A stretch of 64,000 nt of DNA from an uncultured archaeon (GTDB lineage: Archaea; Asgardarchaeota; Lokiarchaeia; Sigyniarchaeales; SOKP01). Each line of letters begins with the position of its first letter. Within the stretch, counting starts at the first letter, position 1. The notes below the pieces were generated by a model that worked only from the letters and a program-made list of their open reading frames with translations, did no database searches and had not been told where the DNA came from. Made by a program: the position numbers and the translations under genes. The DNA lies in contig CAYUTF010000002.1 in NCBI GenBank assembly GCA_964447495.1, positions 51,639-115,638 on the forward strand, given 5' to 3'. This document shows positions 27,465 to 33,530 of this stretch, piece by piece.

Positions 27465-28136
27465 ATGTCGTATGTTTATATGAAAGCATTGGAAAAAAAG
27501 GCGAAAAAATATGATAAAGGAATAAGATTTTTAACGTTAGGACGACTTCCGAAAATCAAAAGTTATATTTCAGATACTATAGTTCAGAAGAATGATACTA
27601 TTTTAGATATCGGCATGGGCACGGGAACATTCGCAATTTTATGTGCAAAAAAAGGAGCAAATGTTATTGGTATTGACAATTCAGAAAAAATGCTGGAAGT
27701 GGCAAAAAAAAATATTGAAGTAAAAAGATTAATGCATAGGATCCAAATCATTAAAATGCCAGTCATTGAATTAGATCACCAATTTTCTGATAATTCATTT
27801 GATAAAATTACTGCTATATTAGCATTTAGTGAACTTTATCAGGACGAGCAAAATTTTTGCTTGAAACAGATAAATAGAATATTACGCGATGATGGTGAAT
27901 TTATTTTAGTTGATGAAGTTAAACCTAAAAAAATTTTGAAAAAAATTGCATATCTTATTATTAGACTACCTTTAGTGTTTATCACATATCTAAAATCTCA
28001 ATTAACCACTAAATCTTTAAAAAACATTGAAGAGAGACTAAAAAATTATAATTTTTCTTTAATTGAAGAAAAATATTTTTTATTAGATACTTTAAAATTA
28101 TTTAGGTTGAAAAAGAGGATTAACACTGAGATGTGA
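27465..28136 (+). CDS. Class I SAM methyltransferase, CpaM-like (corrinoid protein-associated)
   Basis: MSYVYMKALE...YDKGIRFLTLG N-terminus; LDIGMGTG; overlaps the start of the HgcAB-like gene; ATG at 27465 preferred to the track start 27450. Confidence 0.75.
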   Translation: MSYVYMKALEKKAKKYDKGIRFLTLGRLPKIKSYISDTIVQKNDTILDIGMGTGTFAILCAKKGANVIGIDNSEKMLEVAKKNIEVKRLMHRIQIIKMPVIELDHQFSDNSFDKITAILAFSELYQDEQNFCLKQINRILRDDGEFILVDEVKPKKILKKIAYLIIRLPLVFITYLKSQLTTKSLKNIEERLKNYNFSLIEEKYFLLDTLKLFRLKKRINTEM

Positions 28137-29233
28137 GAAAAATGAGGATAAAAGATAGAGTAAAATTATTTTTTAGCTTTTTTTTTAGATGGACTGGTTT
28201 CCCTATAGAACCAACCCTTATAAAAGTTGGAAACCCTACAAATGAAAGTCCAGTTCTGCTTACATGTAATTTCATTTTAACAGTTAGGCGAGTTTTAAAG
28301 GCAATTAAAAAGCTTGACTGCTTTTTATTAATCGCTCCTTCCAAAGGAATTAATGTATGGTGTGGAGCGTGTGGAGATGATTTTCATACAGATTCAGTCT
28401 TATCAATTATAAAAACCAGCGGGATTAACGATGTTGTGTCTAATAGGACTTTAATTTTACCTCAATTAAGCGCTCCTGGAATAGATCCAACAATTATTAA
28501 AAAAAAATCGGGATGGACAGCAATATTTGGACCAGTTTATGCAAAAGATATTCCATCATTTATTAATAGTAAACTTAAAAAATCAGAGTCACAAAAAATA
28601 GTTAGATTTCCGATTTCTCATAGAGCTGAAATGGCTACATTATATTTCTCTATTTTAATTCTTTTATTTTCAATTATCTTTTGGATTGTTGCCATTTTTT
28701 TATCAATCTTGAATCTAATACTTTATTTAGAGACCGTCTCAATTTTAGCGATTATTATTTATGGCTCTATGCTGATTTTACCCAGTATTCCCTTTAAATC
28801 TGGAAAAATAATGGTATGGATTTATGAGGGTTTTGTTCTTCTCTTAATAGTACTATTCAATCTATTCATAATGGTTAGTATTTTTCATCTAATATGGAAC
28901 ATAATCTTTTCTTTTTTAATTTCAATGATTATGGCAGAAGATTTCCATGGGTTAACCCCAATTTATAAAAGTGAATTAGGTGAAAAAACTTGGAAGAAAG
29001 GTAATGAAAAAATGAGATTTTTATTTGGTGAATACAAATTACAGCCATATGGTCAGATTGCTATTATGAGAGATAAATGCATTGGATGTAAAGTATGTTT
29101 AGAAGTCTGTCCGAGAAGTTTATATGTATATAATGAAATTGATAAAAAGGTTGATTTAAGAACTCCTGAAAAATGCATAAATTGTAATGCTTGCGTTAAA
29201 AGATGTTTAGCCCAATGTCTTGAAATAAAGTAA
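28133..29233 (+). CDS. Fused HgcAB-like protein (corrinoid domain + TM helices + 2x4Fe-4S ferredoxin)
   Basis: GNP..SPVLLTCNF, GINVWCGACG, LILPQLSAPG, FGPVYAKDIP; 4 TMs; CIGCKVCLEVCP and CINCNACVKRC. Confidence 0.85.
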   Translation: MRKMRIKDRVKLFFSFFFRWTGFPIEPTLIKVGNPTNESPVLLTCNFILTVRRVLKAIKKLDCFLLIAPSKGINVWCGACGDDFHTDSVLSIIKTSGINDVVSNRTLILPQLSAPGIDPTIIKKKSGWTAIFGPVYAKDIPSFINSKLKKSESQKIVRFPISHRAEMATLYFSILILLFSIIFWIVAIFLSILNLILYLETVSILAIIIYGSMLILPSIPFKSGKIMVWIYEGFVLLLIVLFNLFIMVSIFHLIWNIIFSFLISMIMAEDFHGLTPIYKSELGEKTWKKGNEKMRFLFGEYKLQPYGQIAIMRDKCIGCKVCLEVCPRSLYVYNEIDKKVDLRTPEKCINCNACVKRCLAQCLEIK

Positions 29234-29310
29234 GTATTAATGAAATACATTGTCATATGCTCACGTTCATAATATATGTTGTATTAATCTAAAATAAAAA
29301 TGTTCATTCG

Positions 29311-29883
29311 ATGGTTATAATGCCTAATTCAAACAATACAAAAATGAATGATGGGGAATTACCACGCTCTGGATCGGTTATGTTTAATTTTCATTTTCAA
29401 AATGAAGAGGATAAGAAAAAGGTTTTAAAGCGATGGCAAAAAATAAATAAATATTTAATGATTCCATTGTATAGAGTGAAATTGCTACCGTTATTAGGAT
29501 TTGGGAAAATTTTTTTGATTTTAAAGACAAAAGGAAGGAAAACGGGAAAAATAAGAAGAACTCCATTAGAATATAGACGATACAACGATACTATTACCAT
29601 TTTTGCTTCAAGAGGGGAAGATACAATGTGGGTAAAAAATCTGCGTTCACATCCAGAGGATGTGTCAGTAATGTATGGATTCCATCATTTTAAACCTCAA
29701 ATAGAATTTATTGAAGATAAAAATCAAAAACTTACAATTATGAAATGGTATGTAAAGAATTTTGGAAAAGCAGCAAAAATGCTTTTTGGATGGGATCCAA
29801 AAAATGATGATCCTGAAACAATTGATTTTACAAAATTAATAAATTTGATATCTATTATCTTACTTCATAAAATTAGTAAATGA
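29311..29883 (+). CDS. F420-dependent (deazaflavin) nitroreductase family protein
   Basis: LKTKGRKTGKIRRTPL, WVKNLRSHP. Confidence 0.85.
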   Translation: MVIMPNSNNTKMNDGELPRSGSVMFNFHFQNEEDKKKVLKRWQKINKYLMIPLYRVKLLPLLGFGKIFLILKTKGRKTGKIRRTPLEYRRYNDTITIFASRGEDTMWVKNLRSHPEDVSVMYGFHHFKPQIEFIEDKNQKLTIMKWYVKNFGKAAKMLFGWDPKNDDPETIDFTKLINLISIILLHKISK

Positions 29884-29904
29884 ATTATTAAAGTAGTTGA
29901 AAAA

Positions 29905-31692
29905 TTATCCTTCTTTTTCAATATATTCTAAATTTTCTAAAAGAGATCTTAACTTTAAGGCATTTGCACCTCCAGATACCTGTATATTAACTATTGAATC
30001 CTCATCCGTACCAGTAACATTGGTTTCGATTAATACCTTTTCTGCTCGTATCTGTTTTGTTTGCCGTTTACTTAATGCTTCTTTTAAGGGTTGATCCAAA
30101 TTTGGAAATTCAGCAGCAATTTCTACCCAGACTTCTTTTTGATGAGAATATTTAAACGTAAAATCTGAGACTGTTTGTTTATAAAGTTCTTGATCGCACC
30201 AATTAATTAGATAGGCTCTATTAGGAAATTCAAGATCATCAATTAAATTATTCCTAATTTCAGATAAACTTTTAATATCTCCATTCTTCACAGCGATATC
30301 TATTTTTCTAGCTAATTTTGAATACTTTTTTGCTTTTACTGATTTTATAAAAGAGATCAGATCAAATTTAACTATTAAATCGTTCATTGCATAATTATCG
30401 AGCATTTTTAAATCATTTACTTCTGGAGTTCCATCACGAAAACGAGTAGCTATTTCATAACAGGGCTTTCGATTAATATATCGTTTCTTAATTTCTTCTA
30501 AAACATGTTTAGTAAACTCATATTTATTACCCCAGAATGGTGCTTTCTCCAATTCTCGTGATGTATATTTCACGCGATGGGATATTATGTAAGGTGCAAT
30601 TGTATTTACAATATTAATATCAACTATATTCAAGTTTAATAACCATGCTAAAGCTTTAGAATATCTAAGAAGATCTTTTGCTACTCTTACACTTAGAATG
30701 GAATCAATTTTATTGCAAACGCTTTGTTCGGTGTTGAAATGACATCCAGAACACAATCCAGAACTGGGTTTGATATTTTCAGAATTCCCCTTATCTACGC
30801 GAGCACATAAAGTATATTCTCTTATTATTGCATGAATATAATTATTCACTTCTGTTTCGAATTTCATCTTGTTTACATGGTACCAAATTTCCATGAGACC
30901 ATCAATATGTAAGATTTTAGGTACTTCAATCAATTCATCATATCCAGAATATTTTTCGTCCTTTCCTGTAAGTATTAATGATAAATCATTACTTGTTGGC
31001 ATTGAGATAGGAACTGATATTCCAAAACGATCTAGAAACGGTTGAGACAGTTTTCGAATAATTTGGAAATCAAATTAAATTTCGAATGTCCCAACATCTT
31101 GTGGATTTATAGTAGCATAAAGCGTGTATTTTTCTATAGTATTAATGGCATCGTAATATTTTACTTTTCCTTCAGCTAATAAGGATAAAAGAATATCTTG
31201 GGCATATGGTGTCAATCTGTTGACCTCATCGATAATTTTCCAAAATCCAGTTACAAATTGCCTCCAAACGACTACTTCTTCCCCGTCTTTCATTAACTTT
31301 CCTAATTTTAAAGTCCCTGTAAGTTTTTCTTCTGTGAGTTGCGGTTAGCCGTTAAACGCTGAGAGCGATTAACTATGACCCCTTACAATGGAACTTTCAA
31401 TTTGATCCAATGTCATACCAGTGAACATCCTACCTAATAGTTTAACTAAAGTAGTTTTACCCCCACCATGTCCTCCAACTAATAACATAGCAGAGTTTGG
31501 TACTAGCGCATTTAAAACACACATAGATAAAATTTCAGGCAATGTATTTGTTATAAGCTTCTTCTTATCCTCATTAAAATATTTAACTTCCAAATTTTTA
31601 GAATGAACAAATAATTGATTTGCTTGGATGAGGTTAATAGTGTTCCATACTTTTTTTCTTAATGATTCTTCTTCTCCTAATATATTTGACAT
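29905..31692 (-). CDS. MoxR-like AAA+ ATPase, three exons (31692-31375, 31344-31081, 31050-29905), 575 aa after splicing
   Basis: Walker A GGHGGGKT, Walker B IIDEVNR, sensor NPQDVGTFE|LSQPFLDRF; the three track ORFs are in one frame and separated only by two 30-nt inserts. Confidence 0.9.
31051..31080 (-). other. Putative BHB mRNA intron 2 (30 nt)
   Basis: mRNA GGGACA UUCG AA|A UU UAAUUUG auuuc CAAAUUA UU CGAA AA|C UGUCUC: 6-bp outer helix, 4-bp central helix, two 3-nt bulges; in-frame UAA inside. Confidence 0.88.
31345..31374 (-). other. Putative BHB mRNA intron 1 (30 nt)
   Basis: mRNA GGUC AU|A GUUAA U CGC ucuca GCG U UUAAC GGCU AA|C: 4-bp central helix, 3-nt bulges, inner stem; two in-frame UAA. 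Confidence 0.85.
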
Positions 31693-31805
31693 AAAGATTA
31701 TCTTTCAAAGATTTTTATTATTATTTTAATTATGGTTCTATAGTATTTATAAAATAGTATTACAAAATTAATAGAGAAGGGAGAATCAATTTAGTTATAA
31801 AACAA

Positions 31806-33398
31806 TTAAAACGTGTATTTTTTCCGTTTCTCGGGTAAAATAATGTTCCCTGAAAGTCCAAATTCAGTAAAGGTTTCTGCATGCTCAGTATGCACTGGAA
31901 TGATATTATCGGCTTGAATTGTGGATAACGTAGAAATCAAGTCCTCTACATTAACATGTCCCGAGGAATGGATGGTTTCAGTCTTGATAACACCAAATTT
32001 ATTCAACCATGCATTTAATTTTTTATCTTGAATAACCATTTCTTCATTAAATGGATCTGTTGTAGAATTTATGAATAATATAGAATCTTGTTTCTGATCT
32101 AAATCAATTAATTCGTTCATCATAAAATAATCAAGATACATTAGGTACTTATCCGGCTCAGCTTTAACATCTTTATAATTGATATAATTTTCTTCTTTTA
32201 AAATGATTCGTTCAAATTTTTTATAATCTTCTGATTCGAATTTACCCCATCCTTTCCGTGGTAAATAAATCGATAAAAAGTCATCATTAAATTCAGGTAA
32301 ATTGTAATCTCTATAAAATTCTTTAATATTTTCCTCCTCCATCTCATCAAGTTTTTTCTTTAATGATTCAATATACATATGAATTTTTGGAGTTATAGCA
32401 ATAATACGGTTATTTTTCTTAGCCAAATTATAATATAGTAAGAGTCTATCAAGATTTCTGGATGGATAATTGAATAAAATTAAACCATGATAGTTATTAA
32501 TTAATTCTCCAGAAATCTCTTGGACATCTTTCTCCGATTGAGTATCATCTTTAAATTTTTCATTCTTAAAATCCTCAACAGAAGGCACACGTGTTCCTTC
32601 TGTGATTATTGTTATAGGATTAGACTTTTTAGCATTATTAATAAAAGTTCTTACCCAATCACTATGTAATCCATGTGTTCTAAAATCTCCGGTATAAATG
32701 ATACTTCTTCCGTCGTGTTCTATAATATAGGAACATGCTCCTGGAATGGAATGGTCTACAGGATACTGCGTAATTTTAATCTCTCCATTAGATGTATTAA
32801 AGAAATAAGGCTTACTAGAATCCATCAGTTTAATTTTCCTTAAACAATCGTGTTTCTTATAATCAGTTCTCTTTGCTCTTTTATATTGAATTTCATCATT
32901 AGTTTTTTGCTTCTTTTTTGGAACTTGCTTGAATGCCTCATAAAAATGCAAAATCTCAGGAACTAATGGATCAGAAGAAATTTCATCTAAATAATTAGCA
33001 ATTGCTTCTGTTATCCAATTCATATATATTGGGGTACTTTTCTTAAGGAAGCCTAAGAACTTACAATGATCTAAATGTGCGTGAGTTAGAAAACAAGCAT
33101 CGATTAGATTATCATCAGAGGGCGTTATATTGTATCTTCCTGAACGTAATTTTTCTTTAAATGGTAGAATAAAATCATTTCTGTATATTTTATTGATTGG
33201 AGGGATAAGTCCTAAATATAAATAGTCAATAACACCATTAAATTTTCGAGGATTGAGGAAATTTGAAAAATATTGATTCATATCTTTAAAGGATAATCCA
33301 AAATCAAAACAGAAGGTTTTATCTCCATTCTTTATAAAGATTTTATTTCCTCCAATCTCGTTTATACCACCATATATAGAAACTTGCATGAAAAACAA
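31806..33398 (-). CDS. MBL-fold hydrolase, RNase J/beta-CASP-like
   Basis: GGINEIGGN, THAHLDH, DHSIPG, YTGDFR, HSSGH, PVHTE. Confidence 0.85.
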   Translation of the reverse strand: MFFMQVSIYGGINEIGGNKIFIKNGDKTFCFDFGLSFKDMNQYFSNFLNPRKFNGVIDYLYLGLIPPINKIYRNDFILPFKEKLRSGRYNITPSDDNLIDACFLTHAHLDHCKFLGFLKKSTPIYMNWITEAIANYLDEISSDPLVPEILHFYEAFKQVPKKKQKTNDEIQYKRAKRTDYKKHDCLRKIKLMDSSKPYFFNTSNGEIKITQYPVDHSIPGACSYIIEHDGRSIIYTGDFRTHGLHSDWVRTFINNAKKSNPITIITEGTRVPSVEDFKNEKFKDDTQSEKDVQEISGELINNYHGLILFNYPSRNLDRLLLYYNLAKKNNRIIAITPKIHMYIESLKKKLDEMEEENIKEFYRDYNLPEFNDDFLSIYLPRKGWGKFESEDYKKFERIILKEENYINYKDVKAEPDKYLMYLDYFMMNELIDLDQKQDSILFINSTTDPFNEEMVIQDKKLNAWLNKFGVIKTETIHSSGHVNVEDLISTLSTIQADNIIPVHTEHAETFTEFGLSGNIILPEKRKKYTF

Positions 33399-33530
33399 CC
33401 AGATTATTAAGATGATGTAAATATCGCAATTGAATTTTTTCTTATAATAGTATAATACAAATATAGGTTTAAAAAATCGTTTATTATTGCGAGACTATGG
33501 AAAATTATTAGTATTTATACTAAAATAAAC

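Follow-up and report, generated by a model that had tools for sequence, protein, structure and literature searches.

The interrupted ATPase gene

The stretch of DNA analysed here (the window, 64,000 nucleotides, nt) is taken from contig CAYUTF010000002.1 (positions 51,639 to 115,638) of assembly GCA_964447495.1, the genome of an uncultured archaeon of the Asgardarchaeota (Lokiarchaeia; Sigyniarchaeales; SOKP01), which is 3.8 Mb in size, has ~30% GC, and is 98% complete. On the minus strand, at 31692..29905, lies a gene of 575 codons for a BchI/MoxR-like AAA+ ATPase that is interrupted twice, each time by exactly 30 nt, in frame, and with stop codons. This one gene appears as three minus-strand open reading frames (ORFs) in the same frame, namely 31704..31369, 31344..31075, and 31074..29905. 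The second interruption, intron 2, is the subject of this work, and it is very probably a genuine pre-mRNA intron of the EndA/RtcB type in an archaeal protein gene. The gene is laid out as follows.

31375..31692, minus strand: exon 1, 106 codons, with the start codon ATG at 31692..31690 and the Walker A motif GGHGGGKT; it ends ...VRGH as in uninterrupted orthologues
31345..31374, minus strand: intron 1, 30 nt, phase 0, with two in-frame TAA codons, between RGH and PQLTEEKL
31081..31344, minus strand: exon 2, 88 codons, with Walker B (IDEVNR) and sensor 1 (ATINP), ending ...GTFE; Pfam AAA_5/AAA_3
31051..31080, minus strand: intron 2, 30 nt, phase 0, with an in-frame TAA at 31077..31075, between GTFE and LSQPFLDRF
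29905..31050, minus strand: exon 3, 381 codons and the stop codon, beginning LSQPFLDRF with a putative Arg finger

Once both introns are removed, the window gene encodes 575 amino acids, a length shared by 18 of the 24 intron-less orthologues. An intron-less orthologue of this length matches Pfam AAA_5 over profile positions 2–139 of 139 (expectation value, E = 5.2e-14), gives weak matches to the cobalt and magnesium chelatase ATPase models, and aligns with the BchI chain 1g8p (E = 5e-4) in such a way that LDRF falls on LDRF and its Arg on R208, a residue that we take to be the arginine finger. Judged from sequence, Walker A, Walker B, sensor 1, and the LDRF Arg of the host gene follow the order of the AAA+ family profile, and the long C-terminal region of exon 3 has no Pfam match above the cut-off. 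The initial annotation had placed intron 2 just upstream of an AAA+ arginine-finger motif; the AAA+ ATPase and the position of the Arg on R208 stand, and the finger role itself is our assumption. It had also held that an unspliced message stops before LDRF, as is indeed the case, the first stop being met even earlier, inside intron 1.

The bulge–helix–bulge motif of intron 2

Read as RNA, the intron 2 site runs GGGACA UUCG AAA UU UAAUUUG AUUUC CAAAUUA UU CGAA AAC UGUCUC. Folding and an alignment of ten natural alleles place in it a full bulge–helix–bulge (BHB) motif, with the following elements (bp, base pairs).

31036..31099, minus strand: intron 2 full BHB motif
31099..31095 with 31040..31036, minus strand: extension of the outer helix, 5 bp, past a one-base bulge
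31094..31087 with 31049..31042, minus strand: outer helix, 8 bp, exon to exon
31086..31083 with 31056..31053, minus strand: central helix UUCG/CGAA, 4 bp
31082..31080, minus strand: 5′ bulge AAA
31052..31050, minus strand: 3′ bulge AAC
31079..31071 with 31065..31057, minus strand: inner helix, a UU/UU mismatch and then UAAUUUG/CAAAUUA
31070..31066, minus strand: loop AUUUC

The outer and central helices, the two bulges, the UU/UU mismatch, and the inner stem named in the initial annotation are all present on the minus strand. Its outer helix, GGGACA (31092..31087) with UGUCUC (31049..31044), is there too; what needs correction is the boundary at 31045, which is one base short, and the length, which is 8 + 5 bp and not 6. 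The 68-nt stretch that holds intron 2 folds at −20.2 kcal/mol, whereas shuffled sequences average −9.5 kcal/mol (standard deviation 2.6; z = −4.1), and 0 of 200 shuffles equal it. EndA canonically cuts after the second base of each bulge, and at this site such cuts would excise 31080..31051 (30 nt, phase 0) and join GTFE to LSQPFLDRF. The accessible text of a preprint on Asgard tRNA introns (bioRxiv 10.64898/2026.10.13.758758) goes no further than to place the EndA cuts within each bulge. In the window allele only, a 7-nt direct repeat, TTCGAAA, lies at both ends of intron 2.

Covariation, codon choice, and selection

Intron 2 is a rare element. Among the orthologous loci from relatives that cover the site (n = 27), a 30-nt insert at the identical codon boundary is present in 3 and absent from 24; a pattern scan detects it in 3 of the 42 genomes of the genus, and these are the sole matches among 154 genomes of the order. 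Seven metagenome contigs carry further alleles, bringing the total to the ten that underlie the alignment and all counts of pairing, covariation, and codon use given here. Every one of the ten inserts is 30 nt long with an in-frame stop (TAA or TGA), and the frame reads through in 10/10 alleles after in-silico removal of the 30 nt; two of them are also interrupted at the intron 1 site, and one runs off its contig.

Across these alleles, the structure named above is paired in 89.6% of 260 alignment cells (outer helix 88.8%, inner helix 88.9%), and compensatory changes occur in four helix pairs, spread over the central, inner, and outer helices. The 4-bp central helix is paired in 10/10 alleles, one of its pairs being C–G in five and U–A in five. 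Within the inner helix, pair 35–51 is A–U in six alleles and G–C in four, and pair 32–54 is C–G in four, G–C in three, and unpaired in three. In a single allele, the outer pair 18–68 has changed from U–A to C–G, by way of one Val and one Gln-to-Arg codon. Cells changed on both sides number 13, compared with 5.4 in shuffles (0/500 reach 13), and when the 3′ partner is slid by 1–3 columns, 0–2 such cells are left. Conservation of pairing in related intron-bearing alleles, which the initial annotation had named as the check on the motif, is hence found, with compensatory changes, across the ten.

The exon codons tell the same story from the protein-coding side. The Gly codon in the outer helix is GGG in 10/10 intron-bearing alleles versus 2/24 intron-less ones, the Leu codon is YUG in 8/10 versus 1 of 19 intron-less Leu codons (14 of which are UUA), and outer-helix pairs average 7.1/8 in intron-bearing and 4.5/8 in intron-less alleles. 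Four intron-bearing alleles adjoin intron-less sisters that differ from them at exactly these outer-helix Gly/Leu codons. The expectation that synonymous codon choice at the outer helix would be constrained only where the intron is present, also set out in the initial annotation, is supported by these counts. As for the protein, the ratio of nonsynonymous to synonymous substitution rates (dN/dS) between intron-bearing alleles is 0.05–0.09, with dS of 1.2–2.0 for distant pairs (1.7 for the window allele versus G033), and it is 0.078 between two intron-less alleles. By these measures, the ATPase gene has been kept working while carrying stop-containing inserts.

Intron 1

Intron 1 is the second 30-nt insert, 264 nt upstream of intron 2, and is found in the window genome (G000), in G017 (L018/L044), and in the metagenome contig L037. 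Its BHB motif is relaxed, with a central helix GGUC/GGCU, bulges AUA and AAC, a 10-bp inner stem, and an outer helix of 1 bp. The inner stem shows C–G to U–A and G–C to U·G changes, and the central-helix U·G becomes C–G in G017; the fold of intron 1 alone is not better than chance (z = −0.6, 45/200 shuffles equal it). Both introns are 30 nt long; each opens with A(U/G)UUAAU, closes with AA, and has a C directly after it. They agree at 14 of 30 positions, and it is possible either that they have a common origin or that the likeness arose by chance in AT-rich sequence.

An RNA joint at the predicted 5′ cut sites

Two metatranscriptome runs from different studies each contain a small share of the gene; contigs were placed at a likeness of at least 90%, and the RNA cover of both runs is confined to 31080..31404, the lack of cover elsewhere carrying no weight as evidence. 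From run X1 comes one 224-nt Logan contig with 0 mismatches, in which plus-strand 31262..31373 is followed, 294 nt back, by 31080..31191, so that either side of the joint is covered by 112 nt. One letter of the joint (A) is ambiguous, and the joint may equally be read as 31374 next to 31081 or 31373 next to 31080. In the RNA sense, the ligation connects the last base of exon 2 (31081) with the base that opens intron 1 (31374), and these are the predicted 5′ cuts of the two BHB motifs.

31081..31374, minus strand: back-spliced RNA, intron 1 plus exon 2, 294 nt (98 codons), in one contig of run X1

This 294-nt back-spliced RNA is probably circular. A cut after 31081, as expected from the canonical 3-4-3 register of intron 2, agrees with its joint; the minimum-energy fold would instead place the cut after 31079, which the joint does not match. 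As regards cleavage of intron 2 in vivo, the 5′ site has the support of this single low-depth RNA contig, and the 3′ site, 31051/31050, was not observed. The 1-bp outer helix of intron 1 would leave its 3′ bulge poorly closed, and this would explain a molecule that is cut at the 5′ but not at the 3′ site. That the circle might stem from one long-range BHB spanning both sites of the joint was also considered, and rejected because GGUC and UUCG do not pair.

Splicing enzymes of the genome

The genome encodes both activities that such an intron would call for. It carries two tRNA_int_endo paralogues (E = 1.3e-29 and 1.9e-18), each with the N-terminal and the catalytic domain; when read by eye, the Tyr/His/Lys pattern is present in one of them and the second is without the His, so that the pair would fit an (alpha-beta)2 enzyme. 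Asgard archaea are indeed described, in the part of the source available, as having an (alpha-beta)2 EndA with a loop linked to a broad substrate range (PMC5829648). RtcB is encoded as well (E = 1.6e-168).

Distribution and possible exchange of intron 2 alleles

In a quick protein tree, six of the intron 2 alleles form one clade (98% support), and the other four are nested among intron-less alleles (supports 97–100). Forcing all ten together costs 332 log-likelihood units (p-AU = 4e-49), and a local tree built from 240 nt on each side of the site still does not unite the intron-bearing alleles. Some alleles are mosaics. Over about nt 315–675 (~360 nt around the site), L040 shares 96–99% identity with the allele of G028, which bears the intron, and elsewhere it resembles L008, which is intron-less; L041 switches partner at about nt 600, near the site. 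The recombinant mosaicism of the ATPase alleles was observed by comparing L040 and L041 with L006, L008, and L020. Because of the scatter in the tree and the mosaic alleles, either repeated loss of intron 2 or its transfer by recombination is needed, and the distribution is compatible with either.

The intron itself changes little. It differs at 6/30 positions between the window genome and G033, and it is identical at 30/30 among G028, L040, and L041, the exon dS of L041 versus the other two being 1.1–1.2; intron 2 evolves more slowly than synonymous sites. The variant of L035/L006, L040, and L041 contains, five codons beyond its TGA stop, an ATG in frame at which translation could in principle reinitiate, and the window allele is without such a start.

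Surroundings and searches for further introns

Neither intron has a further copy in the genome: BLAST of both against it returns only themselves and AT-rich matches of at most 17 nt. Comparison of relatives' ORFs with the window, looking for in-frame gaps that contain stops (~11 kb-bins of the window covered), recovers the two known sites only, together with weak spurious matches. Rfam gives no match within 29800..31800, and ARAGORN finds no tRNA in the window. For the whole genome, ARAGORN lists 56 tRNA genes and marks 15 as intron-containing, although several of the calls are implausible (introns of 670–807 nt); this output was not used. Directly upstream of the ATPase gene, at 31806-33494 on the minus strand, is a gene for a beta-CASP-like ribonuclease with a metallo-beta-lactamase fold and an RMMBL RNA-specificity domain. 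The convergent neighbours, at 28130-29883 on the plus strand, encode a CdhD-like membrane protein with a 4Fe-4S dicluster domain and an F420H2-dependent quinone reductase-like protein.

Proposed mechanism and competing explanations

In the mechanism that we propose, exon codons on the two sides of intron 2 in the pre-mRNA, GUUGGGACA and UGUCUCAA, would pair as the outer helix, the exonic UUCG would pair with the intronic CGAA to give the 4-bp central helix, and the inner helix would be the intron's own hairpin. After cleavage by EndA at both bulges, the 3′ one included, RtcB would ligate the 2′,3′-cyclic phosphate of exon 2 to the 5′-OH of exon 3. With the 30 nt and their TAA lost, ...GTFE-LSQPFLDRF... 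would be restored, and hence the arginine-finger half of the ATPase; intron 1, with its weaker motif, would be removed likewise.

Several observations weigh against this reading. The first group concerns RNA. The evidence there is one contig of depth 2.5 from one run, without strand information, and its joint may come from DNA carried over into the library or from template switching by the reverse transcriptase, the latter being thinkable because the two introns begin alike (AUUUAAU and AGUUAAU). The spliced reads for which the initial annotation had called are half supplied: cleavage and ligation at the predicted 5′ site are there in an RNA contig, and no read or contig of either run, with the cover given above, crosses the exon 2–exon 3 or the exon 1–exon 2 junction. 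As no exon–exon junction was seen, productive splicing is our inference, and so are cleavage at the 3′ site, the ligation of exon to exon, and the part of these enzymes in it. The second group concerns structure. In the window allele, the minimum-energy fold has a 6-bp central helix (UUCGAA/UUCGAA) with the 5′ bulge moved to AUU and lies 3.1 kcal/mol below the canonical 3-4-3 form; over the ten alleles, canonical structures lie 2.5–6.6 kcal/mol above the minimum. All four central pairs occur in the minimum-energy fold of 5/10 alleles and both bulges are free as in the canonical form in 1/10, so the canonical motif is not what minimum-energy folding by itself would pick out. The two A–U pairs that lengthen the central helix of the window allele are not kept in other alleles (column 54 is U, C, or G). 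Within the alignment, further pair types number 8, below the shuffle value of 10.9, the outer helix has a C·A mismatch in two alleles (L039 and L042), and the counts over the ten intron-bearing alleles are not independent events because the alleles are related.

A genome-wide census also fails to lend support. For this, 12,570 abutting ORF pairs (each ORF at least 50 amino acids) in the window genome were scanned for BHB motifs that restore the frame, with wrong-phase joins as the control. No excess is seen at any stringency, for example, 267 in-phase matches versus 252 and 261 out-of-phase; at an outer helix of 6 and an inner helix of 5 or more, the numbers are 129 versus 112 and 102. The census is limited by noise and would miss relaxed motifs such as that of intron 1, and all that follows from it is that introns of this kind are not numerous; the lack of an excess means that the ATPase gene is not part of a detectable wave of them. 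Intron 2 ranked among the best short matches. The other two 30-nt matches (contigs C11 and C26) were set aside as ordinary adjacent genes by their look, the second frame beginning with a start codon.

Among competing explanations, real cutting with rare productive ligation is the main open alternative. On this account, EndA cuts the BHB motifs mainly to destroy the mRNA or to yield a stable 294-nt circular RNA, little spliced mRNA arises, and the site serves as a negative regulator or a source of circular RNA. The back-splice is the sole RNA joint seen, and intron 1 has nearly no outer helix to keep its exons together, both of which would suit such unproductive processing. Nevertheless, we consider it unlikely, since the low dN/dS of the intron-bearing lineages holds over all 575 codons, exon 3 included, and the full protein must therefore be made; moreover, an exon–exon helix of 8 + 5 bp at intron 2 is what would be expected if the exons must be held for ligation. 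Less probable still is a split gene whose pieces are translated by termination–reinitiation and assemble into the ATPase, with the hairpin serving translational coupling. The first codon of exon 3 is TTG, a possible start, in 7/10 alleles, and G028, L040, and L041 have an in-frame ATG within the intron, but the window allele has CTG and no ATG, GTG, or TTG before LDRF, the first in-frame ATG after intron 1 comes only 17 codons on, and the break would fall within the AAA+ core. Such a gene would also leave the 3-4-3 geometry, the covariation of the central helix, and the RNA joint at the bulge positions unexplained.

The two remaining accounts deserve very little credence. One holds that the gene is a pseudogene broken by small palindromic insertions or slippage duplications, in which TTCGAAA would be a target-site-like duplication. 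The insert of the window allele is indeed flanked by this 7-nt direct repeat, and in-frame stops are present. However, the repeat is missing from the other nine alleles, neither intron has a second copy in the genome, and ten alleles from independent assemblies keep the frame otherwise intact under strong purifying selection at saturated dS; a dN/dS as low as that reported above, despite stop-containing inserts, excludes a pseudogene in our judgement. The other, for which the prospects are equally slight, is translational recoding, in which the ribosome would either hop over the 30 nt, the behaviour known from phage T4 gene 60, or read through the stop to give a 10-residue insert. It could draw on the stop two codons after GAA with a hairpin behind it and, in the window allele, on a second GAA downstream, but a GAA-to-GAA hop spans 29 nt and would put the ribosome into a wrong frame that stops after 6 codons, and the matched codon is absent in other alleles. 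Besides, the stops are TAA or TGA, intron 1 has two, and the nucleotide changes keep RNA pairing, not peptide. An intron removed from pre-mRNA by EndA and RtcB thus continues to be the explanation that we prefer.

Relation to known systems

A BHB intron in crenarchaeal cbf5 pre-mRNA was reportedly described by Watanabe in 2002. According to the accessible portions of the later sources, this intron has been gained and lost in Crenarchaeota (Yokobori 2009, PMC2738675), and it resembles the present one in being short and inside a protein-coding frame, with the BHB at the exon–intron boundaries, in having hosts with hetero-oligomeric EndA, in its patchy occurrence among relatives, and in the formation of circles from exon ends at the splice site, which is known from Sulfolobus (PMC3326292). 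In contrast, the host gene here encodes an AAA+ ATPase and not a pseudouridine synthase, the lineage is Asgard and not Crenarchaeota, there are two introns per gene, both of 30 nt and phase 0 (cbf5 intron lengths and motif types lying outside this comparison), and alleles with and without the intron occur in one and the same genus, mosaics among them. As stated in the available text of one report, cbf5 was until 2020 the sole archaeal mRNA reported with a BHB intron, to which the intron in the 5′ untranslated region of HVO_1309 in Haloferax volcanii was then added (PMC7714728). The latter is likewise an mRNA substrate of the tRNA splicing endonuclease; unlike the intron described here, whose stops lie inside the frame and whose outer helix is made of codons, it sits, as that text has it, in an untranslated leader and splits no codons. 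The non-canonical tRNA introns of Asgard archaea (bioRxiv 10.64898/2026.10.13.758758), going by the portion of the preprint at hand, share with intron 2 the lineage, the enzyme pair, a motif that is partly exonic, and recurrent gain and loss, whereas the host RNA here is an mRNA without a tRNA body, a role that the unusually long exon–exon helix would fill. That portion of the preprint has no treatment of protein-coding genes. In the literature within reach, subscription journals and supplements lying beyond it, no report of BHB introns in Asgard protein-coding genes was found.

Among eukaryotes, HAC1/XBP1 mRNA is spliced unconventionally by Ire1 and a tRNA ligase, at two stem-loop cut sites, and the XBP1 intron is 26 nt long. 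The likeness lies in a short intron, a non-spliceosomal endonuclease, exons joined by a tRNA ligase, and a removal that alters the protein made; the differences are that the endonuclease there is the Ire1 kinase-RNase and not EndA, that the motif is another, and that splicing there is stress-regulated. RtcB acts in XBP-1 splicing, as far as the available part of the source goes (PMC8718801). Intron 2 joins the known class of EndA/RtcB-spliced pre-mRNA introns and stands out in it by lineage, by two introns per gene, by RNA constraint at the level of codons, and by polymorphism within a genus.

Implications

A further idea, which is tentative and rather unlikely as a whole, is that the two 30-nt introns form one mini-intron family that moves as a ~60-nt cassette (the intron plus the pairing exon bases) between alleles, perhaps between sites, of Asgard protein-coding genes by gene conversion or reverse splicing, and that removal by EndA/RtcB might gate ATPase production as HAC1/XBP1 splicing does. 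Consistent with it, alleles that otherwise group with intron-less ones contain the same 30-nt intron together with the synonymous states of five codons next to it, and the two introns agree in their length of exactly 30 nt, in their phase (0), and in an A(U/G)UUAAU start. If true, this would mean ongoing intron gain in protein genes of the closest prokaryotic relatives of eukaryotes.

For annotation, the practical consequence is that gene callers will give this ATPase as three fragments or as a pseudogene. For biology, intron 2, if it is what we think it very probably is, would give BHB introns of coding regions a second host gene, independent of the first and from the lineage nearest to eukaryotes, with presence/absence polymorphism among near relatives and with exon codons visibly constrained by RNA structure. 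With this locus, it can be tested how an mRNA stays together for splicing by EndA and RtcB when there is no tRNA body to hold it, and how introns in archaeal protein genes are gained, lost, or exchanged.

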